This document shows, piece by piece, positions 45,195 to 64,000 of a DNA stretch of 64,000 nucleotides. Every line of letters starts with the position of its first letter. The first letter of the stretch is position 1. The position numbers and the translations under genes are program-made. Location of the stretch: assembly GCA_963741955.1 (NCBI GenBank), contig CAVUKB010000005.1, positions 1,216,001-1,280,000 on the forward strand, written 5' to 3'. The notes under the pieces are model-generated. The model was not told the DNA's origin, searched no databases, and saw only the letters and a program-made list of their open reading frames with translations. Origin of the DNA: an uncultured Acidobacteriota bacterium. GTDB lineage: Bacteria > Acidobacteriota > Thermoanaerobaculia > Gp7-AA8.

Positions 45195-45302
45195 GAATGA
45201 CCTGCGCGATCCCGGCCGCTGAGGGATCTGCTCATGCGCTGCTCTTCCGACCGAATCATACCCGACACCGGCGGTCGCCGTACGGGCCGGCTCACCCGGA
45301 GG

Positions 45303-46055
45303 TCACAACTCCTTGTCCGGGCCTTCGACGTGGTGATAGTCGCTGTCGATGATGAAGAACGTCCGGTACCACCTCGTCCGGGTGAAGAAGTGGGTCGCCA
45401 CACCGAGCAGAGCTTCGACCTTTCCCGTCGCTGTCGCGTTCTCGCTCTCGTACGAAGAAGGAGAGCGGTACGACCAGTAGACGAGCACCGGTTTGCCTTT
45501 GATCATCGACCGCGGCACGGTGCCCCAGTAACGCGAATCGTACGATTTGTCGCGGTTGTCGCCCATCATGAAGTAGGTTCCCGGAGGAACGGTGTACGGC
45601 CCGAACTGATCCCTGAGCCGGTAGACTTCGGGCAGCCCGGGATAGTCCCGATAGATCTCCGGATCCGAGTGGAGCGCGTACGGTTCAGCGAGAGCCTGCC
45701 CGTTGATATAGACGACCTTGTCGCGAATCGTCACCGTCTCGCCCGGCAGTCCGATCACCCGCTTGACGTAGTCGACCGCCGGATCCCGCGGGTAGCGGAA
45801 CACCGCGATGTCGCCGCGGTGGATCTCCCGGAACGGGAAGAACTCCTTGAATGCAGGAATTGCGGGAGGGCCATCGACGAACTTGTTGACGATGATGTGA
45901 TCGCCGACCAGCAGATTGTCCACCATCGAGGCGGTCGGAATCTTGAAGGCCTGAAAAACGAAAATGCGCGCGAAGTTCACGAAGATAAGCGCAATCAGAA
46001 GCGCTTCGAAATATTCGCGTGCAGTCGACTTCTTTGCCGCAGTTTCATCGCTCAT
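45303..46055 (-). CDS. lepB: Signal peptidase I
   Basis: IPTASM (catalytic Ser), YVKRVIGLPGE (catalytic Lys) and MGDNRDKSYDSRYWG motifs. Confidence 0.95.
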   Translation of the reverse strand: MSDETAAKKSTAREYFEALLIALIFVNFARIFVFQAFKIPTASMVDNLLVGDHIIVNKFVDGPPAIPAFKEFFPFREIHRGDIAVFRYPRDPAVDYVKRVIGLPGETVTIRDKVVYINGQALAEPYALHSDPEIYRDYPGLPEVYRLRDQFGPYTVPPGTYFMMGDNRDKSYDSRYWGTVPRSMIKGKPVLVYWSYRSPSSYESENATATGKVEALLGVATHFFTRTRWYRTFFIIDSDYHHVEGPDKEL

Positions 46056-46058
46056 CGG

Positions 46059-47561
46059 CTATCGTTGCTCTCTTCCGAATTTTTCCCGCAGCACGCGCGA
46101 AGCGTACTCGTCGGGATCGAACTGCCGGGGGATCCGGATCACGCTCGAAACAGGCCCCGAGCTTCGGATCTGCACCGCGCTCCCCGAGACACTCCCTCTC
46201 CTTACCGGCAGAAGATACGTGAAATTCCATCCTGTCGGAGCGCCGGACAGCGCCACGGCTGCGGGGTCGTGCGCCACGACGACGATATTCGAGTGGTCAA
46301 CCCAGCCGAGATCGGCAACTTCGCTCCAGAACGCCTTCGTCAGCGCGCCATGTTCGCCTGGCACGACGAGGACTCCCGCGTCGGTATCCCGAACCACCGC
46401 CGCCCGCGCCGAGCTCCACGCGAGCGGATCGTCGTCGACCATCCAGAGGATCAGCGGATACTTCACCCCGTAACGGATCACCCGCGGAGGAATGAGGACT
46501 GCCGTCGTTCCCGGTGCGACGATCCGGTCGAGCGGCTCCTGATTCGAGAACTCCGATGCGACGACCACCGAGCGGTCACGGCCGGCGTACGTCATCGATT
46601 CGATCTTCGAGGACGCTTCGATCGACGACCAGGTGACGTAGAACTTTTCGGCTTTCGGTTCCCAGGCGATCCCCTGGATCGAAGCGTACGGAAGATCCGC
46701 GACGACCTCGAACCCGGTCGGGACATGGACGGTCCGGATGATCGCGCCATCCGGGAGACGGACGACGTACGAGATCTTGTGCCCTCGAGGAGCCCAGGTG
46801 ACCGTGGTCTCATCGGCCGGGTCCGGACCGATCCAGCGAATGTCCGACCCGTCGACCGTGACCAGACCGACGTCGTGCTGCGTTGCAGCGTTGCCTCCGG
46901 CGCGCCGAAGCGCAGAAACGACGATCTCGATCCCGTCGGGATCAGCCGCCCACGAATCGATCGAAGCGAGAGGCTCCGTGGTGATCGCCTGGCGGGTCCC
47001 TTCGCGATCGACGCGCGTGAGCTGCTCCCCGTCGCGGGTCGCTTCGATTCCGACCACGAATGGACGCTTCGGAAGAATCGCCGGCTGCCGCAGTCTCGGC
47101 AACTCGATCGTCGTCCCCTCCCGGTGCCACACGAGGCCATGATCGGTCGATTCGATGAAGTCGCTGGCGTTCAGGGCGGCGACGACATTCCGTCGCCGGA
47201 TCGTACCGTCCGGCTCGAGCCACGCCGCACCATCCGGGCCGTCCGCGACCAGACTGCCGTCAGAGAGAGAGCTCAGCCGGTCCGGACAGAACGAGAGCGG
47301 AGTCGGCCGGTGATCGCTCCTCCTCGCCAGACTCATTCTCTCCAGAACACAACCGTCCGGTTCACGAATGGCGTAGTAGAGACTCGCTCCGTCGTGAGAG
47401 ACCGTCGTCGCGACGATCATTCCGCCGTTCATTCCGGAAGGAGGGGCGAGCTTCACGGCGTCGGCGGGACGAACCTCTTCCTGGTTTCGAGGAGTCGAGA
47501 CGGCGGTAGTACATCCGGAGAGGATGAGAATGACGGAAAGGAGCCGAATCGCCCGCGGCAT
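46059..47561 (-). CDS. Lipoprotein with TolB/S9-like beta-propeller repeats
   Basis: Lipobox LSGC. WAADPDG, WAPRG and WEPKA propeller-like repeats. TGaTAGAAT lies 8 nt upstream of the ATG (leaderless-like). Confidence 0.65.
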   Translation of the reverse strand: MPRAIRLLSVILILSGCTTAVSTPRNQEEVRPADAVKLAPPSGMNGGMIVATTVSHDGASLYYAIREPDGCVLERMSLARRSDHRPTPLSFCPDRLSSLSDGSLVADGPDGAAWLEPDGTIRRRNVVAALNASDFIESTDHGLVWHREGTTIELPRLRQPAILPKRPFVVGIEATRDGEQLTRVDREGTRQAITTEPLASIDSWAADPDGIEIVVSALRRAGGNAATQHDVGLVTVDGSDIRWIGPDPADETTVTWAPRGHKISYVVRLPDGAIIRTVHVPTGFEVVADLPYASIQGIAWEPKAEKFYVTWSSIEASSKIESMTYAGRDRSVVVASEFSNQEPLDRIVAPGTTAVLIPPRVIRYGVKYPLILWMVDDDPLAWSSARAAVVRDTDAGVLVVPGEHGALTKAFWSEVADLGWVDHSNIVVVAHDPAAVALSGAPTGWNFTYLLPVRRGSVSGSAVQIRSSGPVSSVIRIPRQFDPDEYASRVLREKFGREQR

Positions 47562-47696
47562 CGGGCCCGATTCTATCACCCCGCGGAACCGCTCCCTGTC
47601 GATTGCACGCGAGTGCTCCAAAGCGATAGGATTCGCCCGCGAAGCCTCACGTCTTCTGCTTTGCACCTCATCCTCTCGAATCTTTCAGGAGGCAGT

Positions 47697-49328
47697 ATGT
47701 CCAACGGTATCGTTCACCCCCCGAAGCCAATCAACGAGCCGGTACTCTCGTTCGCGCCCGGCACTCCGGAACGAGCGGTTCTGAAGAAGAAACTCGGCGA
47801 GTTTCTCGCTGAGCAGATCGAGATCCCGCTGATCATCGGCGGAAAAGAAGTGCGGACCGGCCGCACCGCCAGGGCGGTCTGCCCTCACGACCACGGACAC
47901 GTGCTCGCCACGTACCATCAGGCCGGTCCGGACGAGGTGGCGCAAGCTGTCGCCGCTGCCCGCGAGGCGTGGAAGAGCTGGTCCGAGATGCCGTGGGAAC
48001 AGCGAGCGGCTGTGTTCCTCAAGGCAGCCGAACTTCTCGCCGGCCCATGGCGAGCGACACTGAACGCCGCCACGATGCTCAACCAGGCCAAGACGGTTCA
48101 CCAGGCCGAGATCGACTCCGCGTGCGAGACGATCGATTTCCTCCGATTCAATCCGTGGTACATGCGGTTCATTTACGAGCAGCAGCCGGAGAGCGCTCCC
48201 GGAACCTGGAACTATGTCGAGTACCGGCCGCTGGAGGGGTTCGTCTTCGCGGTCACACCCTTCAACTTCAGCTCCATCGCCGGCAATCTTCCGACCTCGC
48301 CCGCGATGATGGGCAACGTGGTTCTCTGGAAGCCGGCGTCGTCGGCCGTTTTCTCCGCCTATTACTTCATGAAGCTCCTCCAGGCCGCGGGTCTGCCGGA
48401 CGGAGTGATCAACTTCATCCCCGGTCGCGGAGGAGACGTCGGTGAGCCTGTTCTCGCCAGTCCTCATCTCGCGGGAGTGCACTTCACAGGTTCCACCGGA
48501 GTGTTCCAGGGGATGTGGAAGACCATCGGCGAGAACATCTCCACCTATCGAACCTATCCGCGCATCGTCGGCGAAACGGGCGGCAAGGATTTCGTCTTCG
48601 CGCACCCCACCGCGGACGTGCCCGCGCTCGCGACCGCGCTCGTTCGGGGATCGTTCGAGTATCAGGGGCAGAAGTGCTCGGCCGCATCTCGCGCCTACAT
48701 TCCGAAGTCGATCTGGCCCGCGACGAAGAAAGCTCTTCTCTCCCAGGTCGGCGAGATCCGAACCGGCGATCCGACCGATTTCAGGAACTTCTTCTCGGCG
48801 GTCATCGACAAGGGGGCGTATCGCACGATCATGGAGTACATCGATTTCGCGCGATCGTCGAAGGAAGCAGAGATCCTGATCGGCGGAAAGGGTGACGACT
48901 CGGTGGGCTATTTCATCGAACCGACCGTGGTGCTCACCACCAATCCCAATTTCAGACTGATCAAGGAAGAGATCTTCGGTCCGGTGCTGACGATCTACGT
49001 GTACGAAGACGCAAAGCTCGACGAGACACTCGAGAGCTGTGATACCTGCAGCCCTTACGGCCTCACCGGCGCCGTCTTCGCTCAGGATCGCGAGGCGATC
49101 GGCATGATGGCGCGCAGACTCCGCCATGCAGCGGGCAACTTCTACATCAACGACAAACCGACCGGTGCAGTGGTCGGGCAGCAGCCGTTCGGAGGTTCGA
49201 GAGCGTCCGGGACGAATGACAAGGCTGGCTCGTACCTCAACCTCACCCGTTGGGTCTCCCAGCGCGCGGTCAAGGAAACGTTCGTCCCCCCGACACACTT
49301 CTCCTATCCCTTCATGGGAGAGGAATAG
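47697..49328 (+). CDS. pruA: L-glutamate gamma-semialdehyde (P5C) dehydrogenase
   Basis: AGGAGG RBS. PFNF, FTGST, GETGGKDF, FEYQGQKCSA, EIFGPV and GQQPFGG motifs. Confidence 0.96.
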   Translation: MSNGIVHPPKPINEPVLSFAPGTPERAVLKKKLGEFLAEQIEIPLIIGGKEVRTGRTARAVCPHDHGHVLATYHQAGPDEVAQAVAAAREAWKSWSEMPWEQRAAVFLKAAELLAGPWRATLNAATMLNQAKTVHQAEIDSACETIDFLRFNPWYMRFIYEQQPESAPGTWNYVEYRPLEGFVFAVTPFNFSSIAGNLPTSPAMMGNVVLWKPASSAVFSAYYFMKLLQAAGLPDGVINFIPGRGGDVGEPVLASPHLAGVHFTGSTGVFQGMWKTIGENISTYRTYPRIVGETGGKDFVFAHPTADVPALATALVRGSFEYQGQKCSAASRAYIPKSIWPATKKALLSQVGEIRTGDPTDFRNFFSAVIDKGAYRTIMEYIDFARSSKEAEILIGGKGDDSVGYFIEPTVVLTTNPNFRLIKEEIFGPVLTIYVYEDAKLDETLESCDTCSPYGLTGAVFAQDREAIGMMARRLRHAAGNFYINDKPTGAVVGQQPFGGSRASGTNDKAGSYLNLTRWVSQRAVKETFVPPTHFSYPFMGEE

Positions 49329-53884: not shown

Positions 53885-54937
53885 ATGAAATTCGTTCCCA
53901 CACTCCTGATGGCAATGCTCGGATTCTGCGGAATTTCGTTCGCCGCGGAGCCGGCTCCGATCGCAATGGTGATGCACGGCGGCGCTGGAACCATCCTCAA
54001 AAAGAACATGACCCCGGAAGCGGAGAAAGCATATCGGGAAAAGCTCGAAGAAGCACTCCGTACCGGTTACACCGTGCTTTCGAAGGGAGGCAGCAGCCTC
54101 GACGCGGTCGAGGCGTCGATCCGGGTTCTGGAAGACTCTCCTTTGTTCAACGCCGGAAAAGGAGCTGTATTCACCCACGAAGGGCGCAATGAGCTCGACT
54201 CGTCGATCATGGACGGAAAGAGCATGAATGCCGGGGCAGTGGCGGACGTCACGATCATCAAGCATCCCATCTCTGCCGCCCGAGCAGTGATGGAGAAGTC
54301 ACCTCACGTGATGCTCGCCGGGAAGGGAGCCGAGCTGTTCGCCACGGAACAGGGACTGGAGATCGTCGACCCGTCGTACTTCTGGACCGAGAGCCGCTGG
54401 AAGTCGCTTCAGAACATACTGATCAAAGAACGGCAGGAGAAGGAAAACAAGAGCGGATCGGGAGCCGGGCAGGCCACGCTCGAGCTGAAAGACGGTGACC
54501 ACGAGTTCGGCACGGTCGGCGCGGTCGCTGTCGATCGGAACGGGAACATCGCCGCGGGAACCTCCACCGGCGGCCTCACGAACAAGATGTACGGCCGCAT
54601 CGGCGACTCGCCGATCATCGGCGCCGGAACGTATGCGGACAACAGGACCTGCGGAGTCTCGTCCACCGGAACCGGCGAGTACTTCATCCGCTGGCATGTC
54701 GCCTCGCGGATCTCCGACCTGATGGAGCTCAAAGGATTGAGCGTCGACCAGGCCGCGCGGCAGGTGATCGATTTCCTCACCACGGTCGGCGGGGACGGGG
54801 GAGTCATCGCGATGGATGCGAAGGGAAACATCTCGATGCCGTTCAACACCGAGGGGATGTACCGCGGATACATCCGCGCGGACGGAACGCCGCACGTGTT
54901 CATTTACGGAGACCAGGCGAAGAGCGCCAAGCCGTGA
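53885..54937 (+). CDS. iaaA: Isoaspartyl peptidase / L-asparaginase (Ntn hydrolase), exported
   Basis: HGGAG, FNAGKG, GTVGAVA (Thr nucleophile), TSTGG and GRIGDSP motifs. AAGGAGG RBS. Confidence 0.93.
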   Translation: MKFVPTLLMAMLGFCGISFAAEPAPIAMVMHGGAGTILKKNMTPEAEKAYREKLEEALRTGYTVLSKGGSSLDAVEASIRVLEDSPLFNAGKGAVFTHEGRNELDSSIMDGKSMNAGAVADVTIIKHPISAARAVMEKSPHVMLAGKGAELFATEQGLEIVDPSYFWTESRWKSLQNILIKERQEKENKSGSGAGQATLELKDGDHEFGTVGAVAVDRNGNIAAGTSTGGLTNKMYGRIGDSPIIGAGTYADNRTCGVSSTGTGEYFIRWHVASRISDLMELKGLSVDQAARQVIDFLTTVGGDGGVIAMDAKGNISMPFNTEGMYRGYIRADGTPHVFIYGDQAKSAKP

Positions 54938-55131
54938 ACGCCGCCTCCAACCATCATCGTCGCGCATTCGGCGTTCTGTCGTCTTGATTTGCGAGGAGGC
55001 ACAGACCATCTTTCTCGATCGAAGCCGGTCCGCCCCTGGGCGGTTCGCGGACCGAATTGTCGCCCGCCGTGCAGCGAGGGGGGCGACACCGGCTTCGAGG
55101 TCCGACGGCGATCCGAGTCCCATCGATCCGT

Positions 55132-56841
55132 TCAGAAGGTCCAGGGAAAGTAAAGCATCTCTGGACTCGGGAATTCACTCAACATGTCGATCCTGTGAGT
55201 CCATATCACCGCAACCGGCGCGGCGGGATTACCGCCTTCCACAGAGATCTCATGTCGTCCGCTCTCCAGCCACAAACCCTGCGAAGTCATCTGCTTTCCG
55301 TCGATCGACACACGTGGGGCGCCCGAGCCATAGATTCGATACATACCCGTCGAGGCGATAGGGAATGCCGCTCGACCACCGCGCCAGTCGGATGGAGCGA
55401 CAATCCATCCAGTCACGCCGACTTTCCCGTATACGAGCGGAAAGGCCTTGCCCAGGAAGGCGCGATCGGAGCGACTCAGCCAACCGGTCCTGTACGAGGG
55501 CACGACCAATCGGACGTGGTAGCGCCAAAGTTCCTGAGATATCCGAAATTCTCCCTGCCAATAACGGGGCATCATCAGGCTGTGGAGGCGCCAGTAATAC
55601 GGTCCTTTTCGGAACAGAATCAGGCCCGCCGTGTCATAGACCCGCTCATCCGAAGGCACCACTGCCATAACGATCCGGTTCGCCTCCAACTGGGGCGCGA
55701 GCGAGTTCGTCTGAGCGAGCGAGACGAACCGAAACGTCGGAAATGCCACGACCAGCACGACGAGCAACCACCCTGCCCAGTTCCGAATTTGAAAAGCACG
55801 CTGGAGTGCCATGCCCGCGAAGACCGCCCAAACGGGGGCTACGTCCACGAAGTTGTATGGAAAGAAGGTCGGGTTGGCAATCACGTAGACGATCGTAAAC
55901 AGCAGCGGTGCAGCGAGGATGTAACTCCGCCTGCCGTACCGTCTGAAAGCCACTCCGAGAACTCCTGCCAGCGTCAGCGCGTAGAAAACGGAATTCCGCA
56001 GGAATGACGTCTCGAAGAAACCGATCGGACTGACGCGGCTGATGGGAGCGGCAGAAACCTGCAGGTTCCGGACGATCGTCTCTGCGAAGAGCTGCAGGTC
56101 TCCTCTTGCGGTCAGGTAGAGGAGGTAAGACAGCAGAACCAGTCCTAGACCTGCCGCGAAGGCAAGAAGGTGATCGAAGAATCGTCTCCACCTTTCACCA
56201 CTCCATACGTGCAGAAGGATCGCCAGACCGAGAAACGGGATCATCAGGAACGCTTTGAAGTTGAACGTGAACGCGAGTCCGGTCATGGCTCCCGACAGCA
56301 GAAGTGCGAGCCTCGAATCCGTTTGAATCAGAATAATCGCCGTGAGCATCAGCAGGATCAGGACCGAATCACTCCGAAATTCGATCACCCGGTCACTGAA
56401 ATCAGTCATGAAGGAGATCGCGATCATCGCGAGCACGGCCGCGGATCGTCCCGCGATCCTCAGCGCGAGGACTCCGGTCAACAAAATGACGGTTGCACCG
56501 ACGCCCCATTGAATCGAGCGAAACAAATACACTCCTCGGAGACTCGATCCAAGGATCCTCCAGATTCCCTCGGCCAGATCGATCAGCAGACTGAACTGCG
56601 GAAACGAATAGTCGACACCCGGCCGCTCGCCCGCGGACCGAAGCCATCCAAGATGGAGCAGTTGCATCTCGTCCACCTGCAGGTAACGGCTCCAGGCAAC
56701 CACCAGCCTCACCAGCATGGCAAAGCCGATCAGAGCGAAACCGTAAAAACGAAATCTGGAAGAAGATTCGAACGGCCCTTCGGCGGGAAGATTCGTGAGC
56801 TGACTTTCGACCGATGAGTCGGACTGCGCAGTCACCGACAT
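55132..56841 (-). CDS. Polytopic membrane protein, GT-C fold (ArnT/PMT-like) glycosyltransferase candidate
   Basis: DE motif after TM1 (QVDEMQLLH), EFRSD, FNFK, about 11 TM segments and a soluble C-terminal tail. Confidence 0.65.
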   Translation of the reverse strand: MSVTAQSDSSVESQLTNLPAEGPFESSSRFRFYGFALIGFAMLVRLVVAWSRYLQVDEMQLLHLGWLRSAGERPGVDYSFPQFSLLIDLAEGIWRILGSSLRGVYLFRSIQWGVGATVILLTGVLALRIAGRSAAVLAMIAISFMTDFSDRVIEFRSDSVLILLMLTAIILIQTDSRLALLLSGAMTGLAFTFNFKAFLMIPFLGLAILLHVWSGERWRRFFDHLLAFAAGLGLVLLSYLLYLTARGDLQLFAETIVRNLQVSAAPISRVSPIGFFETSFLRNSVFYALTLAGVLGVAFRRYGRRSYILAAPLLFTIVYVIANPTFFPYNFVDVAPVWAVFAGMALQRAFQIRNWAGWLLVVLVVAFPTFRFVSLAQTNSLAPQLEANRIVMAVVPSDERVYDTAGLILFRKGPYYWRLHSLMMPRYWQGEFRISQELWRYHVRLVVPSYRTGWLSRSDRAFLGKAFPLVYGKVGVTGWIVAPSDWRGGRAAFPIASTGMYRIYGSGAPRVSIDGKQMTSQGLWLESGRHEISVEGGNPAAPVAVIWTHRIDMLSEFPSPEMLYFPWTF

Positions 56842-57018
56842 GATCCGGATCACCTGGATCGAAGCAGCACGATTACGGCCAGGAATACACTCTGGGCCCA
56901 GGCCGTGGCAGCTCCGACTCCTGATTCCACGCCGCCAGCGGCGAGCACGCCACGCCGCCAGAGCTCGCCATATGTTATCATTTCGCGATTTCGATCATTC
57001 AATTCGACCTTCCTTCGC

Positions 57019-57750
57019 ATGGATTCACCAATTCTGACCATCGCGATGCCGGTGTTCAACGAGGAAGCTGTGATCGCCGGCACAGTCCGCGAGGCGCTTG
57101 CCGCGCTCGACTCTTTCGAGGAGCCGGGAGAGGTTCTCGTCATCAACGACGGATCGACCGACCGGACTACGGAAGTCCTCACCCTCCTCCTTGATCGCGA
57201 CGCTCGACTGCGGGTCATCTCGAACGAGACGAACTACGGTATCTCCCGCTTCAACCGACAGATGATCGAGCATGCTCGGGGTGAGTGGGTTTTTTTCATT
57301 GGGTCGGACGGAGAATGGGAGTGTGCCGAGGCCATCCGGTTCCTCCGTTTTGCGCGCGAGAAAAACGTCGAGGCAGTGCTTGGATACCGGGTTCGGAAGC
57401 AATATGGCGTGTGGCGTTCCGTCGTATCCGCCTCTTTCAATCTCCTGGTTTTTCTCTGTTTCGGCGCCAGGTTTCGCGACGTCGGAAGCATCCGGCTTCT
57501 GAAACGAAGCACCTTTGGGGCACTTCGTCTCTATTCTCGATCGGCTTTTCTGAATGCGGAGCGGCTCCTCGTCGGGAAGAGGAGGGGCGCGCACTACTTA
57601 CAAGTACCCGTCAAACACCTCAGACGGAAGGGAGGGAGAGGCAGGGGAGCAACTCCGCGACGAGTGCTCGCCTCGCTCGCGGATCTCTTTCGCACGCGCT
57701 GGCGCTGGTTTCGATTCCAGACCTTCTATGGAGGCGAAAGTTCTCGGTGA
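57019..57750 (+). CDS. GT2 glycosyltransferase (polyprenol-phosphate sugar synthase-like)
   Basis: MPVFNEE, INDGSTDRT, GSDGE and VLGYR motifs. 243 aa. Confidence 0.88.
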   Translation: MDSPILTIAMPVFNEEAVIAGTVREALAALDSFEEPGEVLVINDGSTDRTTEVLTLLLDRDARLRVISNETNYGISRFNRQMIEHARGEWVFFIGSDGEWECAEAIRFLRFAREKNVEAVLGYRVRKQYGVWRSVVSASFNLLVFLCFGARFRDVGSIRLLKRSTFGALRLYSRSAFLNAERLLVGKRRGAHYLQVPVKHLRRKGGRGRGATPRRVLASLADLFRTRWRWFRFQTFYGGESSR

Positions 57751-58757
57751 GAGTTCCCCGGCGGTTCATTCGACTCCTGGCCGGCCTGATCATTTCCGGG
57801 GCCGCCGTATTCGTGGTCGTTCGTGCCGTCTCCGCCCAAGCGCTGATGGAATCATTGCGGACGCTTCATTGGCAGTGGGTGCTTCCGATCCTTCTCGCGA
57901 AGAGTCTCCTGATCGTCTTGAAGTACCATCGCTGGAAAGTCATCCTGCGCTCGAGCTTCCACCGCACCCTCCGTGGCGTCTTTTCCGCCACCACGATCGG
58001 CTATTTCACGAATATGATGATTCCGATGCGACTCGGCGAAATCCTCAGGGCCGGAGTCGTCAGCCGGAAGAATCGGGAAGTGCGGACCCCGGACGTCCTG
58101 GGCACAATCGCCGCCGAAAGGTTGATCGATCTCGCGGTTCTGGTGCTGCTCGCAAGTCTGGTCTCTCCATGGATGGCGATTCCGTCTTCGATGAGGAGGG
58201 GCGCTCTCCTCTTGTTCGGTCTGCTCGGGATCGTGGTCCTAGTCTCGTTGTTGGAGCCGCTCCATGAAAGCGTCGCGGCCCTACTCCCGAGCAATGTCAT
58301 GGGGCGTGGTCTGGCGGTTCTGCTTCGTGCGATGAGCCGAGGGACGGCGATCCTGAGAAGCCCTTCCGGCCTTGCGCTGGCCACGTTCTGGACGGTGATC
58401 ATCTGGTTGGTCGACTCCAGCGCTCTCTACTTTGCAACGAGGACGACCGACGCGGGAATCGGATATCTGCAATCCATCTTCATCATGCTCCTGTTTGCAC
58501 TGGGATTGACGATTCCATCGGCTCCGGCTCAACTCGGGACGCACCAGGCCCTGGCCGTATTTCTCCTCACTCCCTTGGGAGCAACGACGGCTCAGGCAGT
58601 CGCTACTTCGCTCGTTCTGCAGAGTTCAAACCTGATCGTGCTCAGTATCTTCGGAGGGAGCGCGTCGTTTCGTGAAATCAGCCGGTGGCGCCAGAACGAA
58701 GACTATGACGCACTCCCGACGGCGAAAATCTCGGCGGATAAGTCGGGCAATTCATGA
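57747..58757 (+). CDS. Lysylphosphatidylglycerol-synthase TM / flippase-like membrane protein
   Basis: HRWKVIL, NMMIPMRLGEILRA, ERLID and IPSAPAQLGT motifs. GTGA overlap with the GT2 gene. Confidence 0.88.
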   Translation: MRVPRRFIRLLAGLIISGAAVFVVVRAVSAQALMESLRTLHWQWVLPILLAKSLLIVLKYHRWKVILRSSFHRTLRGVFSATTIGYFTNMMIPMRLGEILRAGVVSRKNREVRTPDVLGTIAAERLIDLAVLVLLASLVSPWMAIPSSMRRGALLLFGLLGIVVLVSLLEPLHESVAALLPSNVMGRGLAVLLRAMSRGTAILRSPSGLALATFWTVIIWLVDSSALYFATRTTDAGIGYLQSIFIMLLFALGLTIPSAPAQLGTHQALAVFLLTPLGATTAQAVATSLVLQSSNLIVLSIFGGSASFREISRWRQNEDYDALPTAKISADKSGNS

Positions 58758-59413
58758 CCGATGGCCTCGAACGCGGAGAGCAACTTCGGATCGAGTGAGC
58801 ACATCTGATCGTTCGGGAGCGGTTTGATCAGGTGCCCTCCCGTTTCGACCACGACGAGACCGGCCTCACGAAAATGAGAAGCAAGAATCTCCAGCGTGTA
58901 CATCTCGTGATGTCCGAGCTCATGATCGGTGTGTCCGGCGGCAGCGAGGTCGGCCAGCATCCCCATTCGAACACCCGCTCGCCGATGAAGAGAGCGAGCG
59001 TTCGGAACGATTGCTACGATCTTTCCACCATCCGACAACCACCGCACGACATGGCGCAGGAGCGCCGGAGGATCGCTCACGTGCTCCAGTATGCACGACA
59101 TGACGATCGCGTCGAACCTGTCGTCCCCAGGATCGAACTCCTCGAACTTCGATTGCACTACGTCGACGTTACCGAGTTCGGATACCCGGGCTCGAGTCCG
59201 CTCGACGCGCAAGGCGCTCGCATCGAGCGCGAGAACATGGCTATGGTACTGCGCCAGGTGCCACGTCAGAAGACCGTCGGCACAGCCCAGATCGAGAATC
59301 CTGCCAGGGCTCAGCACCGACTCGAGCGTATTCGCACGGCATTCGATCAATCGTGGCGTGAATCCCTGCGTCTGGTCGTGATGCGCGGCGATGCGTTCAA
59401 GCTCAGAGTTCAT
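58703..59413 (-). CDS. Class I SAM-dependent methyltransferase
   Basis: ILDLGCADG, ILEHVSDP and IVPNA motifs. Confidence 0.9.
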   Translation of the reverse strand: MNSELERIAAHHDQTQGFTPRLIECRANTLESVLSPGRILDLGCADGLLTWHLAQYHSHVLALDASALRVERTRARVSELGNVDVVQSKFEEFDPGDDRFDAIVMSCILEHVSDPPALLRHVVRWLSDGGKIVAIVPNARSLHRRAGVRMGMLADLAAAGHTDHELGHHEMYTLEILASHFREAGLVVVETGGHLIKPLPNDQMCSLDPKLLSAFEAIGHELPDLSAEIFAVGSAS

Positions 59414-60441
59414 TGAGACGGAACTCCAAAAACCGGCTCGACGTCCAGCTGTCGATATTCATGGAGGCCGACTGCCAGACCTTTCGGGGACACCGCATCG
59501 CCAGGTTCCATCCGCAGCGCGCGACGGACGACGAATAGTGGCAGATTCACCCCCGCATTCGTATAGAGCCACGGGCGACCCGCGAGTCTGGGATTGATTT
59601 CCGTCACCTTCGGCTCCCCCGCTGCATCCTCACGTATGTCCACACTGTAGAACCCCGACGGGTTCGGGTCGACCATGAGTACGACGTCGGTCGCCATCTG
59701 CAGGAATCTCTCTGGCTGTACCGTGGCGCAAAACGCAACCTGACCCGAGATTCCGCTTACCGCCGGCTCCGCCAGGAAATAGCGCAGGCGTTCCATCGCC
59801 ACCGAGATCATCAGTTTGCCGTCGGCGTAGACGCCGGTCCAATTGAAGTTCCTGCCCGGCAGATACTCCTGCATCATCCAGCGATCGGCCCGACCTCGAC
59901 TCTGCCAATATCGAATCCACGACAGTGCCTCGTCAGCAGATGCTACCGAGATACTCCCGCGGCCCCCCGGTCCGACCCTGGCCCGCAGCCAGAGCGGAGA
60001 CCCGAGCTGCTCGAATCCCTTCACCACATCCTGATCGTCCGCGATGGGGATCGTCCTGGGAAATGCGCTCGATCCCTTCGCGGCCGACACGGTTTTCGAC
60101 TTGTCGAGACAGACCTCGATCACCGGAGGAGGAGGCAGGGCGTGGCTCGTACTCGGGCGGTAGCTGGTCGCCGCAACGCCTTCCAGTTCCGGGTCCGGGT
60201 TGATGAAGACGAAGTCGATCGAACGTTCCGCGATGACTCGTTCTATCTCCGAGACGAAACCCGAGGCATCGTGATCGGCCCTCGGCAGGGCGACGACTTC
60301 GTCGCACAGCCCGGCCGCGATTCTCCGGCCCCACTCGTTGCCATCGCCACCGATGATTCTGACCGAGGCGTCCCGTCGAAGGCTGCGCGCGACATCGATT
60401 CCGATGCTTCCACCAATCCCCGTTACCAGAACCGAGGTCAT
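59410..60441 (-). CDS. ATP-grasp ligase
   Basis: VLVTGIGG, CLDK, MQEYLPG and TEINPRLAG motifs. Confidence 0.88.
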   Translation of the reverse strand: MTSVLVTGIGGSIGIDVARSLRRDASVRIIGGDGNEWGRRIAAGLCDEVVALPRADHDASGFVSEIERVIAERSIDFVFINPDPELEGVAATSYRPSTSHALPPPPVIEVCLDKSKTVSAAKGSSAFPRTIPIADDQDVVKGFEQLGSPLWLRARVGPGGRGSISVASADEALSWIRYWQSRGRADRWMMQEYLPGRNFNWTGVYADGKLMISVAMERLRYFLAEPAVSGISGQVAFCATVQPERFLQMATDVVLMVDPNPSGFYSVDIREDAAGEPKVTEINPRLAGRPWLYTNAGVNLPLFVVRRALRMEPGDAVSPKGLAVGLHEYRQLDVEPVFGVPSQ

Positions 60442-61910
60442 GAATTCATCTCCAGTGGTACGAAAATCCCGTTCCGCAAGATCGGCACGACTGAATACAG
60501 GTCGGCTTGCGCACAGAATCTCACGTCATCAGCGTACCCGAGTGCCACGAGATTCCGGCCGGAATCCCCTCCGAAAAAGGCAGGTTCGAGGCCGGCTGCG
60601 GTCGGCAATGGTTCTCCGTGCAGACGCGCCTCGGGCATCGAATGGAAGATTTGTCCGGCGGCCAGCGAATCCTCGATCGCCTCGCGGTTTCCTCTCCCCG
60701 CGAGCAGGAGCGTCAGCGGCAGATTGGATTCCAGGGCCAGACGATGCGCCTCTCGCGCCACTGCCGAGGCATTGAGGCTCGATCCGATCAAGATCACAGA
60801 ATTCGGCCCGGCAGCGGTCAAGACGCACTCGATGCAGTTCGTGGTCGTGAGCGTCAGCTCCCGGCCACGATAGTTCTGGTTGAGCAACTCGGTCGGGCTG
60901 TTGCCGTGGTCGACGTTCGGCAGTTTGAAGCCGCCACGCTCGCCCGCTGTCACATCGCCCACACACTCTTCGACCGTCGCGACCGGCCTAACGGATTTCA
61001 TCCCCATGGCCAGCGCGGTGATGATCGTCGCGCTCGCCCTCAACGCGTCGACCACCACGACGACACCTCCGCGCCTTCGCGCTTCCACAGCACCGGTGAC
61101 GCCGACCTCCACGTACACGTGAGCGCCCTTGAGATGGATGTCTGCGAACGTGTCCCCTCGCAGCCCGAACCGCAACGTACCAACCGAAATGGCATCCTCG
61201 GGTGCGATGTTCGCGAGATTGACGTCGGTTCCGAAAGTCTGGATCAACCATACCTGCTGACTCTTGCGGGGTGCCTCGAAAATCAGACTTTCGGTACCGA
61301 ACTTCTCGGTGAGCCGGTGCAGGAGCTCCGTCAGCGGCTTTCCATTCTCGTCGTAGATGCCGACGGTACCCGATTCTCGGGCCTCCAGAATCACCTTCTC
61401 CGAGCCAGCCTCCAGTTCGGCCTGTATCGCTCGAACTCGTTCACCCAGTGTCAGCCGAGCGTCCTCTTGGGGATCTTTCTTGCCGACCTCACTCCACACC
61501 CTGAAGCCCGCCTCCCTCGCACGTTCAATCAGCCTGAGTTTTTCGGATTCCGCCATCGGGTGGACGCCGTTCGAAACTTCGACCAGGTGAAACCCGAGCG
61601 CGCCAGCTTCGGCGAGTAACTGATTCTCTTTACCCTGAGCGTGAGCGACCTCGAGCAAAGTGCCCCCCGTACAGGCGCAGACGCCAGCGGCGGCATAGGC
61701 CTGGATCTTCCTTTCCAGGATTGGCCGAGGGAACATTCTCGAGGTTCCCCATCCGAGCTTGACCACGTCGATCCAGTTCCCTGCCGATGCGACCAGGTCC
61801 TCGACCTGTCCCACGCCGAGCCCTTTGTCCAGAATCGACGTCAAGGCCCTGGTGCGAGGTTTCTCCGGAATTTCTGGATGAGAGATAAAGTCGAAAGCAC
61901 TTCTGGTCAT
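60438..61910 (-). CDS. comA-comB: Fused phosphosulfolactate synthase (ComA) / 2-phosphosulfolactate phosphatase (ComB)
   Basis: ComA half: DKGLG, KLGWGTS, GGTLLE, SEVGKK, EARESG, FEAP, LRFGLRGDTF. ComB half: VDALRASATI, GERGG, GNSP, TTTN, IEDSLAAG. Confidence 0.9.
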   Translation of the reverse strand: MTRSAFDFISHPEIPEKPRTRALTSILDKGLGVGQVEDLVASAGNWIDVVKLGWGTSRMFPRPILERKIQAYAAAGVCACTGGTLLEVAHAQGKENQLLAEAGALGFHLVEVSNGVHPMAESEKLRLIERAREAGFRVWSEVGKKDPQEDARLTLGERVRAIQAELEAGSEKVILEARESGTVGIYDENGKPLTELLHRLTEKFGTESLIFEAPRKSQQVWLIQTFGTDVNLANIAPEDAISVGTLRFGLRGDTFADIHLKGAHVYVEVGVTGAVEARRRGGVVVVVDALRASATIITALAMGMKSVRPVATVEECVGDVTAGERGGFKLPNVDHGNSPTELLNQNYRGRELTLTTTNCIECVLTAAGPNSVILIGSSLNASAVAREAHRLALESNLPLTLLLAGRGNREAIEDSLAAGQIFHSMPEARLHGEPLPTAAGLEPAFFGGDSGRNLVALGYADDVRFCAQADLYSVVPILRNGIFVPLEMNS

Positions 61911-62962
61911 TCGTGGTCCTCCGCAAAATGGAGGCGAACGACTGCACCTCCACGCTGAAGGCTCTTCTGAGCGGCCTCCAGGATCACGACGACATCTCGG
62001 CCGAACTTCGCATCGGACCGCGGCGTCGCATCGTTGCGAATGCAGTCAGCGAAATGGAGGCATTCCTTCCGGAGAGCTTCGGCCTTTTCTATCTTCGGAG
62101 CATACATATCGCCAGTGCGGTACTGGACCAGCGTTCGATAGATTGCTTCGGCTGTCGGGGCGGCATCCACCCCTCGATCGTAGATTCTCAACTTCGTATC
62201 CGGCTCCACGTCATCCCACACCACCATCTTGCGACTGCCTCCGATCATGGTGAGCCTGATCTTGACGGGAGCCAGCCAGTTGACGTGAACGTGCGCGATC
62301 AGACCCGACCGGAAACGAGCCATCAGATACGCAACGCTTTCGTACGAGTGGGATGTGGGATCGACGGGTGTAGCCCCAACCGCGATGATCTCGAATGGTC
62401 GCTCCTCGATCAGGTACAGCATGATGGATAGATCGTGGGGGGCAAGGTCCCAGAGGACGTTGCAATCGTGCTGGAAGAGGCCGAGATTCACACGCACGGA
62501 GTCGAAGTAATAGAGACGACCCAGCTCGCCGCGATCGATCAAGTCACGGATCTTCTCGACCGTACCCGTGTAGAGGAACGTGTGGTCTACGAGCAGCACT
62601 CGGCCCGTCCGCTCGGCGATCCGGGCCAGTTCTTCACACTCCCTGGCGGAATTGGCGAGAGGCTTCTCCACGAGCACGTGTTTACCGCTGAGGAGCGCAT
62701 CACGCGCGAGAGCAGCGTGGGTTGACACCGGCGTCGAGATCGCGACGGCCTCTATCGAAGGGTCTTCGATGATCGCACGAGCATCAGTGGTGACTTTCTC
62801 GATCGAAAACTGCCGCTTCACGAAGTCCAGTCGTTCAGAATCGAGGTCGCAGGCGGCCACGAGACTGAACTCCTGCGCGAAGCTGAAATTGCGGATCAGG
62901 TTCGGCCCCCAATACCCGCAACCGATCACCGCGATCCGGACTGGCGAAAGAATCCCGTTCAT
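61907..62962 (-). CDS. Gfo/Idh/MocA family oxidoreductase
   Basis: IGCGYWGPN, HVLVEKP and WDLAPHD motifs. Confidence 0.93.
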   Translation of the reverse strand: MNGILSPVRIAVIGCGYWGPNLIRNFSFAQEFSLVAACDLDSERLDFVKRQFSIEKVTTDARAIIEDPSIEAVAISTPVSTHAALARDALLSGKHVLVEKPLANSARECEELARIAERTGRVLLVDHTFLYTGTVEKIRDLIDRGELGRLYYFDSVRVNLGLFQHDCNVLWDLAPHDLSIMLYLIEERPFEIIAVGATPVDPTSHSYESVAYLMARFRSGLIAHVHVNWLAPVKIRLTMIGGSRKMVVWDDVEPDTKLRIYDRGVDAAPTAEAIYRTLVQYRTGDMYAPKIEKAEALRKECLHFADCIRNDATPRSDAKFGRDVVVILEAAQKSLQRGGAVVRLHFAEDHE

Positions 62963-62989
62963 GCAGCGGTCCACGATCCCCGGAAGGGA

Positions 62990-64000
62990 TCAGCAAGGGA
63001 CTCCAAAAAATCGCCGGATCTGCTCACATACGTAGTCTACCTGATCGTCCGCGAGGGTTGGAAACATCGGCAGAGAAAGGAGCTGTTCGGCTGCGGATTT
63101 GGCGACCGGGCATGCGTCGAGCGGCAGCGGCTTATCGAGGATCGGTTGGGCGTGTACCGGGTGGGGGTAATGCACAGCCGTTGCGATTTCACTTTTCGCG
63201 AGAAACTCCGCAAGGCGAGACCGTTCGGAGGTGAGAATGACAAACTGGTGATACACCGGTTCGGCGCGGGAATCCTCTTCCAGCATGCGGATCTGGCGGC
63301 ATTCCGCGAGGCCTCGCCGGTATCGGCCTGCGATCACCCTCCGCCGTTCGTTCTGAGCATCCAGTTCCAGAAGCCGGACCCTCAGCACGGCGGCCTGCAA
63401 GGCATCGAGCCGGCTGTTGCAGCCCCACCGGTCGTGCCACGACCGTCCGCTCTGCCCATGATTCCCGAAGTGCCTGATCTCCGAGATCAACCCGGGGCTA
63501 TCGGACGTGACCGCGCCACCATCCCCGAAGCATCCGAGATTCTTCGATGGGTAAAAGCTCCATCCTGCAGCCACGCCGAACGATCCCACCCGCGTTCCGT
63601 TCCATTTCGCTCCCTGGGCCTGGGCGGCGTCTTCCAGATACCAGAGACCGCGCGACTCACAGAAGGTACCGATCGCATCGAGGTCGAAAGGGTGGCCATA
63701 GAGATGAACTCCGACCACTCCCACCGTTCGCTCGCCGACGCATTTCGCGACTTCCTCCGGCGAGATCGTCAAGGAGTCAGGAGCGACGTCCGCGAAGACC
63801 GGGGTCGCGCCGGAGTGGAGAACCGCCTCCACGGTCGCGAAGAAGGTCATGGCCGGGATCACGATCTCGGCGCGAGGACCGGCACCCAACGCGCGAAGCG
63901 AGAGCGTGATGGCATCGGTTCCGTTTGCAACTCCCGCGCAATGGGCGGAACCGATGAAGGATGCGAACTCCGTCTCGAAGGACTCGACCTCGCCGCCGCC
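62990..64000 (-). CDS. DegT/DnrJ/EryC1/StrS sugar aminotransferase (5' end beyond window)
   Basis: Frame is open to base 64000. NGTDAI, VHLYG, EDAAQA, SFYPSKNLG and NSRLD motifs. Confidence 0.95.
   Translation of the reverse strand, partial: GGGEVESFETEFASFIGSAHCAGVANGTDAITLSLRALGAGPRAEIVIPAMTFFATVEAVLHSGATPVFADVAPDSLTISPEEVAKCVGERTVGVVGVHLYGHPFDLDAIGTFCESRGLWYLEDAAQAQGAKWNGTRVGSFGVAAGWSFYPSKNLGCFGDGGAVTSDSPGLISEIRHFGNHGQSGRSWHDRWGCNSRLDALQAAVLRVRLLELDAQNERRRVIAGRYRRGLAECRQIRMLEEDSRAEPVYHQFVILTSERSRLAEFLAKSEIATAVHYPHPVHAQPILDKPLPLDACPVAKSAAEQLLSLPMFPTLADDQVDYVCEQIRRFFGVPC

Follow-up and report, generated by a model that had tools for sequence, protein, structure and literature searches.

At the end of a 64,000-nucleotide stretch of DNA (the window, G000:C5:1216001-1280000) from an uncultured soil bacterium of the Acidobacteriota, we found an eight-gene cluster that is predicted to make a sulfolactyl amino sugar and to deliver it to the cell surface. 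In the proposed pathway, to which we give a probability of roughly 55%, uridine diphosphate N-acetylglucosamine (UDP-GlcNAc) would be converted to a 3-amino sugar, which would be N-sulfolactylated, possibly methylated, loaded on polyprenyl phosphate, flipped across the membrane and transferred to an acceptor in the envelope. The enzyme classes come from family assignment, and from these we infer the reaction order, the sugar and its amide linkage, as well as the site of methylation and the acceptor. A sequence-only reading of the window had proposed a sulfolactyl amino-sugar modification of the surface, and the analysis supports it, all of this support being comparative genomics.

The gene cluster and the proposed pathway

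Genes were called from the list of open reading frames (ORFs) and from Pfam and NCBIfam scans of the window proteins. The host genome is 5.44 Mb long and 99.1% complete. Eight genes were confirmed from position 55132 to the window end, as follows.

55132..56853 (-): GT-C fold membrane glycosyltransferase, ArnT/PMT_2-like, 573 aa (PMT_2; nearest ESM-Atlas clusters)
57019..57750 (+): family 2 glycosyltransferase (GT2), ArnC/AglD/DPM1 type, 243 aa (PF00535; PDB relatives)
57747..58757 (+): UPF0104/LPG_synthase_TM (MprF flippase-domain-like) membrane protein, 336 aa (PF03706)
58703..59413 (-): class I S-adenosylmethionine (SAM) methyltransferase, 236 aa (Methyltransf_23)
59410..60441 (-): predicted ATP-grasp carboxylate-amine ligase, 343 aa (weak Pfam matches; AlphaFold2 fold)
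60438..61910 (-): ComA-ComB fusion, 490 aa (PF02679 and PF04029)
61907..62974 (-): Gfo/Idh/MocA oxidoreductase, 355 aa (PF01408)
62990..64000, on to about 64168 (-): DegT-family pyridoxal phosphate-dependent aminotransferase (PF01041)

Read 5' to 3', the minus-strand order is DegT, Gfo/Idh/MocA (hereafter Gfo), ComA-ComB (ComAB), ATP-grasp and SAM methyltransferase. The run of four genes joined by 4-bp overlaps, which had been noticed from the sequence, proved to be real: all three junctions (Gfo/ComAB, ComAB/ATP-grasp and ATP-grasp/methyltransferase) consist of ATGA when the minus strand is read. DegT and Gfo are separated by 15 bp. The run faces a GT2 and flippase-like pair with a GT-C-like neighbour, an arrangement confirmed by the ORFs, Pfam and the ESM-Atlas. 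This pair lies on the plus strand and converges on the methyltransferase end of the run, and the flippase-like gene and the methyltransferase gene share 55 bp at their 3' ends (58703-58757), so that no space for a terminator is left between them. The start of the flippase-like gene overlaps the GT2 stop as GTGA. The GT2 start codon at 57019 was chosen from the sequence, and the Pfam scan used a longer ORF (56905-57750) that contains the GT2. The GT-C gene is divergent from the GT2 gene.

In the proposed mechanism, the ComA-ComB fusion would convert phosphoenolpyruvate (PEP) and sulfite to 3-sulfolactate. The Gfo protein would oxidize C-3 of UDP-GlcNAc or a close nucleotide sugar, and the DegT protein would aminate the C-3 keto product. 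The ATP-grasp enzyme would then activate the sulfolactate carboxylate as an acyl phosphate and form an amide with the new 3-amino group, standing in for the acetyltransferase of WbpB/WbpE/WbpD-type pathways; the cluster carries no acyltransferase gene, and the ATP-grasp is its only candidate for acylation of the amine. The methyltransferase may cap the sulfolactyl hydroxyl or a position on the sugar. The GT2 would move the acylated sugar to undecaprenyl phosphate, the UPF0104 protein would flip the lipid-linked sugar, and the GT-C enzyme would transfer it to an envelope acceptor, possibly lipopolysaccharide, as LpxC is encoded in the genome. As the product, the cell surface would carry a carbon-bonded sulfonate with a permanent negative charge. 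Because no polymerase, Wzx or initiating phosphotransferase was seen near the cluster, this product is probably a single-sugar decoration, as in modification with 4-amino-4-deoxy-L-arabinose (Ara4N) or Gtr-type glucosylation.

The ComA-ComB fusion and the amino-sugar pair

The ComA domain of the fusion (residues 13-253) matched PF02679 with 280.5 bits (cut-off 25.2) over model positions 2-243 of 243, and residues 20-257 align with residues 12-250 of the 251-residue M. jannaschii ComA (1qwg) at 201 bits. The ComA equivalog model TIGR03849 gave 273.5 bits, just below its cut-off of 280. The ComB domain (residues 280-480) matched PF04029 with 145.3 bits (cut-off 26.4) and solved ComB-family proteins; the equivalog TIGR00298 was missed, at 109 bits against a cut-off of 175. 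These matches support the prediction that the fusion acts as phosphosulfolactate synthase and 2-phosphosulfolactate phosphatase. It is the sole ComA copy in the genome. Metagenomes hold 833 relatives of the fusion, counted as clusters, at E<=1e-30, and both domains were present in 120 of the 120 matches listed.

The DegT protein matched PF01041 with 349.9 bits. Its top solved match is 7b0d, annotated as scyllo-inositol transaminase (282 bits), and the best named solved relatives are DesV (2oga), QdtB (3frk) and WbpE (3nyu), at 223-276 bits, while ArnB and the perosamine synthases reached only about 130-144 bits. We take DesV, QdtB and WbpE to be C-3 sugar aminotransferases, and ArnB and the perosamine synthases to be C-4 enzymes; the DegT protein thus groups with C-3, not C-4, enzymes and is predicted to be a sugar C-3 aminotransferase. 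The Gfo protein (PF01408, 93.5 bits) is predicted to be a nucleotide-sugar 3-dehydrogenase. Its best NCBIfam model was NF040723, the archaeal UDP-GlcNAc 3-dehydrogenase, with 153.4 bits (E 9e-45) against a cut-off of 450, and its PDB matches were generic. The suggestion of a WbpB/WbpE-like pair therefore stands for the DegT half, whose best named solved relatives are C-3 aminotransferases, and falls short for the Gfo half, which is far from the equivalog score. In two other loci (L003 and L054; L-numbers denote compared loci, G-numbers genomes and P-numbers metagenomic protein sequences), Gfo orthologues 49-50% identical to that of the window are paired with DegT beside ComAB.

The ATP-grasp ligase and the methyltransferase

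Family scores of the ligase are low: ATP-grasp_3 gave 23.3 bits (cut-off 23.2) and ATPgrasp_Ter 28.1 bits (cut-off 29.1), and the NCBIfam matches were also weak. An AlphaFold2 model was obtained with a mean predicted local distance difference test score (pLDDT) of 94.1 and a predicted template modelling score (pTM) of 0.92, and in this model the ligase has a complete three-domain ATP-grasp fold. Foldseek matched it with a probability of 1.00 to many ATP-grasp enzymes at template modelling (TM) scores of 0.6-0.72, the top matches being L-amino-acid ligases (RizA, BL00235), biotin carboxylases, PurK and PylC, and a PDB profile search gave 2pn1, RimK and LysX. Neither the Foldseek search, which returned generic ATP-grasp relatives, nor the PDB profile search gave a clue to the substrate. 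The family is sharply bounded, with 68 relatives of 38-63% identity (E<=4.8e-63) and the next sequence at 29% (E 1.4e-34), and the motif TE[VI]NPR[LF]AG around E281 and N283 is conserved in it. The enzyme is predicted to be a sulfolactate:amino-sugar ligase, the acid being assigned from gene linkage.

The methyltransferase matched Methyltransf_23 with 83.6 bits. Orthologues of 55-58% identity lie near the ATP-grasp gene in L003, L006 and L010, and the C-terminal half of P0103, a fusion of an ATP-grasp and a methyltransferase, shows 51% identity to the protein. The sulfolactyl 2-OH and a sugar position are candidate targets. P0103 and another fusion, P0007 (ComB and ATP-grasp), are each represented by one metagenomic sequence and were taken as evidence for gene order only. 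They may be artefacts, because the genes overlap by 4 bp and a 1-bp assembly error could fuse them; P0007 has a low-complexity stretch that is apparently out of frame.

Conservation of the neighbourhood in other genomes

A profile built from 33 members of the ATP-grasp family was searched against GTDB species genomes and gave 40 loci, 32 of which were of orthologue grade (35-52% identity); the neighbouring genes in these 32 were identified by tblastn with the window proteins. In the phylum of G003, a profile search at E<=1e-40 hit 33 of 251 genomes. The 18 loci fetched from there were all paralogues of 27-34% identity, with no DegT or ComA nearby, and the paralogues were left out of the orthologue counts, only G003 itself (413.7 bits) being kept.

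ComA adjoins the ligase in 10 of the 32 loci (L003, L004, L006, L007, L010, L012, L023, L029, L030 and L034), and DegT is present in 26. In four of the 22 genomes without an adjacent copy, ComA was found elsewhere by a whole-genome family search (G003, G004, G005 and G570), against a background rate of 4 in 251 genomes in the phylum of G003. In the other 18 of the 22 it was not found; these are metagenome-assembled genomes (MAGs), in which absence is not proven. In a maximum-likelihood tree of the ATP-grasp sequences (40 rows), the starred clade of the window holds 12 rows; ComA is present in 10 of them (8 adjacent, 2 elsewhere) and in none of the other two, one of which (L011) has a transposase next door. 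All four of the four archaeal rows have ComA. The expectation that the neighbourhood would be conserved elsewhere is borne out by these counts. In addition, for 20 of the 68 metagenomic ligase relatives, the longest contig has the same size as that of a listed ComA-ComB fusion; these were compared by eye and taken as the same contig, and at least two of the 20 (L003, L030) are also among the loci compared.

The closest repetition of the window is L003, which has DegT, Gfo, ComA, ComB, ATP-grasp and methyltransferase, with flippase-like and GT2 genes about 9 kb away. The GT2 directly adjoins the ligase or ComAB in L005, L007, L011, L012, L014, L018, L030, L051 and L052, a flippase-like gene is present in L003, L005 and L011, and HldE-like kinase/nucleotidyltransferase genes recur in L005, L007, L011 and L051. 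In L054 (G550:C14:407000-425000), DegT (47% identity) and Gfo (49%) are divergent from ComAB. After ComAB come a non-orthologous ATP-grasp (26% identity), a LarA-like protein, an M50/TPR protein and a DUF4070 radical SAM enzyme, and the locus has a YfhO-like protein of 790 aa close by. The LarA-like gene belongs to the lactate racemase family and hints at hydroxy-acid epimerization in some versions of the system. In L051 (G003:C4) and L052 (G004:C12), a DUF2079 membrane protein is followed by ComB-ComA and GT2. L051 additionally has a GlpX-type bisphosphatase, the HldE-like protein, DegT and an epimerase/dehydratase, a gene set that looks like a different route to an amino sugar. More distant ATP-grasps (22-27% identity) accompany Gfo (24-42%) in L035, L036, L038 and L042, from Bathyarchaeia, Portnoybacteria and an archaeon, with ComA in none of them; L035, L036 and L042 also have DegT and a methyltransferase, and L038 has GT2 instead. 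A Gfo/ATP-grasp core that works with other acids may therefore exist.

Evidence against the pathway and other substrates of the ligase

Several observations weigh against the proposed pathway. No ComB match was found by tblastn in five of the ten ComA-adjacent loci (L006, L010, L012, L023 and L034), ComB being present in the other five; in the ComB-less loci the ligated acid could be phosphosulfolactate, or another phosphatase could act. The sister clade, likewise starred, consists of 17 rows from Planctomycetota, most of them Pirellulaceae; ComA is present in one (L012) and was undetected in the other 16 genomes (L009, L013-L022, L025-L027, L032 and L033), which are marine MAGs of Pirellulaceae type. 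The annotated sister-clade loci L014 and L018 have DegT, ATP-grasp, GT2 and a protein of about 595 aa without a Pfam family. Since this clade keeps DegT, ATP-grasp and GT2 without ComA, sulfolactate is not a universal partner of the ligase family, and the ComA-less Planctomycetota ligases either use another acid or obtain sulfolactate from elsewhere. Compared with these relatives, L012, with the order RmlA-like, DegT, ComA, ATP-grasp, GT2 and methyltransferase, suggests that ComA can be present or missing as an insert while the rest of the operon stays similar. Eight alignment columns split ComA-linked from ComA-less ligases, none of them involving a charged residue; L012 carries the Pirellulaceae-type residue at 8 of the 8 columns and the ComA-less L005 carries the other type at 8 of the 8, so that the columns track phylogeny rather than the presence of ComA and are lineage markers. 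The Gfo score lies so far under the equivalog cut-off that the identity of the sugar is a guess, and at E<=1e-5 the GT-C of the window was matched in none of the other loci. We found no description in the literature of an ATP-grasp enzyme that N-acylates a nucleotide amino sugar. The C-terminal ATP-grasp of Cj1438 (Cj1438C), from the C. jejuni capsule, likewise makes an amide bond on a surface glycan, but its polarity is opposite, in that the sugar supplies the carboxylate and a small molecule the amine; its fold is TupA-like, and it acts on a polymer and is not an orthologue of the window ligase (PMC11800379).

These observations bear on an alternative in which sulfolactate is made but is not joined by the ATP-grasp to the DegT product. 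The ligase would then act on another carboxylate or amine, or on a lipid-linked or transferred sugar, or sulfolactate would serve as a glycosyl acceptor, as 3-phosphoglycerate does in glucosylglycerate synthesis. Such a division of labour would fit the 16 of 17 Planctomycetota-clade genomes with ligase, DegT and GT2 and no detectable ComA, the GT2 genes directly beside ComAB in L007, L030, L051 and L052, the separate places of ComAB-GT2 and ATP-grasp-DegT in the genomes G003 and G004, and the action of Cj1438C on a polymer rather than a nucleotide sugar (PMC11800379). Nevertheless, ComAB and the ligase are translationally coupled in the window, and their adjacency in the ten loci extends over several phyla. 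L054 has a non-orthologous ATP-grasp in the same slot after ComB, and the ComA of L012, unlike its ComA-less relatives, sits exactly between DegT and the ligase. The cluster also contains no other candidate for acylating an amine and no other enzyme that produces a carboxylate. We regard this alternative as unlikely.

The export arm and the glycolipid alternative

The GT2 matched PF00535 with 79.6 bits. Among solved proteins, its closest relatives are three ArnC sequences, with E values of 4.6e-12 to 5.9e-10 over residues 6-214, and it matched the NCBIfam ArnC model NF007986 at E 5.2e-11 and 42 bits, far under the cut-off of 529. It is about 80 residues shorter than ArnC (243 versus 322-327 aa) and thus probably lacks the C-terminal membrane part of ArnC. 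From these matches, it is predicted to load the modified sugar onto polyprenyl phosphate. The UPF0104 protein, with 135.2 bits for PF03706, 39.6 bits for TIGR00374 (cut-off 43.2) and about eight hydrophobic segments in a crude scan, is a predicted flippase. The GT-C protein also showed about eight hydrophobic segments in such a scan. It has no PDB sequence match and scored 22.7 bits (E 1.3e-4) for PMT_2, under the cut-off of 26.1, and its nearest ESM-Atlas clusters are PMT_2/ArnT (feature score 0.99, structure TM about 0.8). GT-C enzymes take polyprenyl-phosphate-linked donors, and the protein is predicted to be a periplasmic transferase using the lipid-linked sugar. Set against the suggested ArnC/ArnEF/ArnT logic, the GT2 is nearest ArnC, there is no ArnE or ArnF, a PF03706 protein being present instead, and the GT-C neighbours ArnT/PMT_2 clusters while scoring under the PMT_2 cut-off. 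YfhO-like membrane proteins (a fragment in L003, and in L054) or DUF2079 membrane proteins (L051, L052) lie beside the cassette elsewhere; we take both to belong to the GT-C clan, and different GT-C-type genes replace that of the window at other loci. A GT2, a UPF0104 protein and a PMT/STT3-type enzyme form a conserved archaeal neighbourhood, in which UPF0104 is the predicted flippase (PMC5898192).

The export arm might instead serve a glycolipid. After the same cytoplasmic chemistry, the GT2 would put the sulfolactyl amino sugar straight onto a glycerolipid head group and the UPF0104 protein would flip the resulting sulfonated glycolipid, the GT-C being unrelated or acting later. UPF0104 is the MprF flippase domain and partners a glucosaminyl-phosphatidylglycerol glycosyltransferase in P. 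aeruginosa gpgSDF, of which C. difficile hexSDF is an analogue (PMC12713373). Fusions of UPF0104 domains with glycosyltransferases are widespread (bioRxiv 10.1101/2022.03.11.483950), and the GT-C of the window is not sequence-conserved at other loci. However, the GT2 is nearest ArnC, which uses undecaprenyl phosphate, whereas GpgS is a GT4 (PMC12713373). The GT-C gene is divergent from the GT2 gene within the same low-GC island, and GT-C-type genes recur beside ComAB or ATP-grasp elsewhere. A glycolipid as the end product is therefore a minority possibility, and transfer of the sugar from a polyprenyl carrier is the reading that we keep.

Surroundings and acquisition of the island

When the sequence beyond 64000 was read, the longest DegT ORF was found to extend past the window to window-equivalent position 64168. 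Beyond it lies a complete rRNA operon on the minus strand, 16S-tRNAIle-tRNAAla-23S-5S (L002 1228-6669, window-equivalent 64228-69669), whose 5S gene, read in the same direction as DegT, lies some 60 bp before the DegT start. It is conceivable that transcription from the rRNA promoter might read through into the island. The other flank is an Asparaginase_2 gene (53885-54937, plus strand, 404 bits), and the outlying genes belong to ordinary metabolism (aldehyde dehydrogenase domain, CoA transferase, thiolase). The cluster is a stand-alone unit of about 9 kb. Two minus-strand ORFs, 56850-57218 and 54299-55123, were treated as spurious because they have no family and overlap the GT2 and Asparaginase_2 genes, respectively. 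A promoter and terminator scan gave matches at chance level. Farther away, a 1364-aa ORF (45234-49328, plus strand) has Aldedh as its sole Pfam domain, at residues 877-1334; the first 870 residues may represent a reading frame drawn too long in GC-rich DNA, or an uncharacterized domain.

The island (55132-64168) has a GC content of 59.9% against 63.2% for the genome, and an equally low value was found in 0.9% of 1772 nine-kb windows. In five genomes of the same family, the ATP-grasp and the GT-C were each found in none, the flippase-like gene has only 22-26% identical paralogues, and Gfo has one 33%-identical homologue, in one of the five. Among 301 sampled genomes of the phylum, the ligase occurs only in G000. 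The synteny of PD40 and asparaginase genes is kept in three same-family genomes, and no cluster gene lies in the roughly 13-15 kb beyond it in these three. Low GC together with absence from the same-family genomes led us to read the island beside the rRNA operon as probably horizontally acquired.

Less probable fates of sulfolactate and the amino sugar

The union of the genes could be due to chance, with a GnnA/GnnB-like pair that makes UDP-GlcNAc3N for lipid A lying beside a ComAB that makes free sulfolactate as in Bacillus spores. The Gfo protein has a weak PDB match to 7bvj (E 8.8e-14), which we take to be GnnA. LpxC is present in the genome, so that the organism makes lipid A, and B. subtilis, the positive control in our genome searches, carries ComA. 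On the other hand, ComAB lies between Gfo and the ligase with ATGA overlaps, and the Gfo-DegT-ComAB grouping is seen again in L003 and L054. As the island is absent from the same-family genomes, it is not a core lipid A function. We see little chance that the genes are unrelated.

In another scheme, Gfo and DegT would act on sulfolactate and convert it through sulfopyruvate to cysteate, which the ATP-grasp would ligate as amine or acid. Gfo would replace the missing ComC, and ATP-grasps often ligate amino acids, as do the top Foldseek matches RizA and BL00235. The nearest named solved relatives of DegT, by contrast, are nucleotide-sugar C-3 aminotransferases, and among the NCBIfam models Gfo fits a UDP-GlcNAc 3-dehydrogenase best; DegT moreover accompanies the ligase in the 16 clade genomes in which no ComA was detected. 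A cysteate route is similarly improbable.

That the genes feed coenzyme M biosynthesis is hardly credible, although the archaeal pathway starts with the ComA and ComB reactions. Searches of the 99.1%-complete genome gave no match for ComC (Ldh_2, PF02615) or for ComDE (sulfopyruvate decarboxylase alpha, TIGR03845), with positive controls, so that the argument against coenzyme M, which had been made for the window, holds for the genome, and it is very unlikely that coenzyme M is made by the archaeal route. In the bacterial route, ComA is followed by a lyase of the aspartase/fumarase type, and ComB plays no part (PMC9457059). The window does not have this Xcb layout: ComA is fused to ComB, and Lyase_1 was not found in a scan confined to the cluster, with no genome-wide search for it. 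ComA does lie beside Lyase_1 in L057 (G543:C113) and in L077 (a metagenome contig), an Xcb-like context that contrasts with the window. A scan of metagenome contigs with the single ComAB protein gave two loci, both ComA-only, one with Lyase_1 and one beside a DegV-family gene.

Comparison with known systems

The M. jannaschii ComA and ComB and their B. subtilis homologues share the predicted chemistry of the fusion, from PEP and sulfite through phosphosulfolactate to sulfolactate. In the window, by contrast, the two enzymes are fused, the downstream coenzyme M enzymes are absent from the genome, and sulfolactate is predicted to donate an acyl group to a glycan rather than to serve as a cofactor precursor. 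WbpB, WbpE and WbpD are the dehydrogenase, aminotransferase and acetyltransferase of a 3-amino sugar pathway. This pathway and archaeal 3-amino sugar pathways resemble the window in the use of a Gfo-family 3-dehydrogenase and a DegT C-3 aminotransferase; the window differs in having no acetyltransferase and in a Gfo score far under the equivalog cut-off. The Arn pathway, which puts Ara4N on lipid A, shares the logic of an N-acylated amino sugar, loading on undecaprenyl phosphate by a GT2, flipping and transfer by a GT-C enzyme. The flippase candidate of the window is, however, of the UPF0104/MprF type and not a small ArnE/F pair, the cluster has no equivalents of ArnA, ArnB and ArnD, and its decoration would be anionic, whereas Ara4N is cationic.

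The archaeal neighbourhood of an AglD-like GT2, UPF0104 (arCOG00899) and PMT/STT3 has the same three protein types as the export arm; it serves hexose addition in N-glycosylation, while the window trio is bacterial and tied to a sulfolactate/amino-sugar operon (PMC5898192). In the 2-sulfoacetyl cassette of misaugamycin-B (acyl carrier protein (ACP), acyl-CoA ligase, ComA and glyoxalase), a ComA homologue is likewise proposed to supply a sulfonated acyl amide; there the target is a glycopeptide antibiotic, with CoA/ACP activation and a C2 sulfoacetyl group, in place of the ATP-grasp and sulfolactyl group predicted here (PMC9136965). The gpgSDF genes of P. aeruginosa resemble the window in that a glycosyltransferase and a predicted UPF0104 flippase put an amino sugar on the membrane's outer face, but GpgS is a GT4 acting on a phospholipid, and the system as described in that source has neither a GT-C nor a sulfonate (PMC12713373).

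Significance

In the literature searched, from which subscription journals were mostly absent, we found no description of a sulfolactyl glycan or of ComA together with an ATP-grasp enzyme, and no glycan role for phosphosulfolactate among the matches listed. It is tentatively proposed, at slightly less than even odds, that the cluster represents a widespread and previously undescribed chemistry of the envelope: an N-(3-sulfolactyl) amino sugar whose negative charge, on a carbon-bonded sulfur group, does not depend on pH. The sugar would be made by the first ATP-grasp enzyme known to N-acylate a nucleotide amino sugar, and its delivery would fall to the ArnC-like GT2, the MprF-type flippase and the GT-C enzyme, the cassette having spread horizontally through at least Myxococcota, Planctomycetota, Gemmatimonadota, the host phylum and several archaeal lineages.

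The sulfonates with a carbon-sulfur bond that are known from microbial surfaces are mainly sulfoquinovose and the sulfonolipids. If the proposal is true, the sulfolactyl amide of an amino sugar would add a new class to the glycan decorations, ATP-grasp ligases would gain a new reaction type, and the hundreds of uncharacterized bacterial ComA-ComB fusions (the 833 relatives) would have a role outside coenzyme M. The window offers an unusually compact, eight-gene version of the system with defined boundaries, suited to heterologous expression. For the organism, a strong-acid group that is charged at any soil pH could influence the hydration of the surface, its binding of metals, the adsorption of phages and the cell's resistance to cationic peptides.

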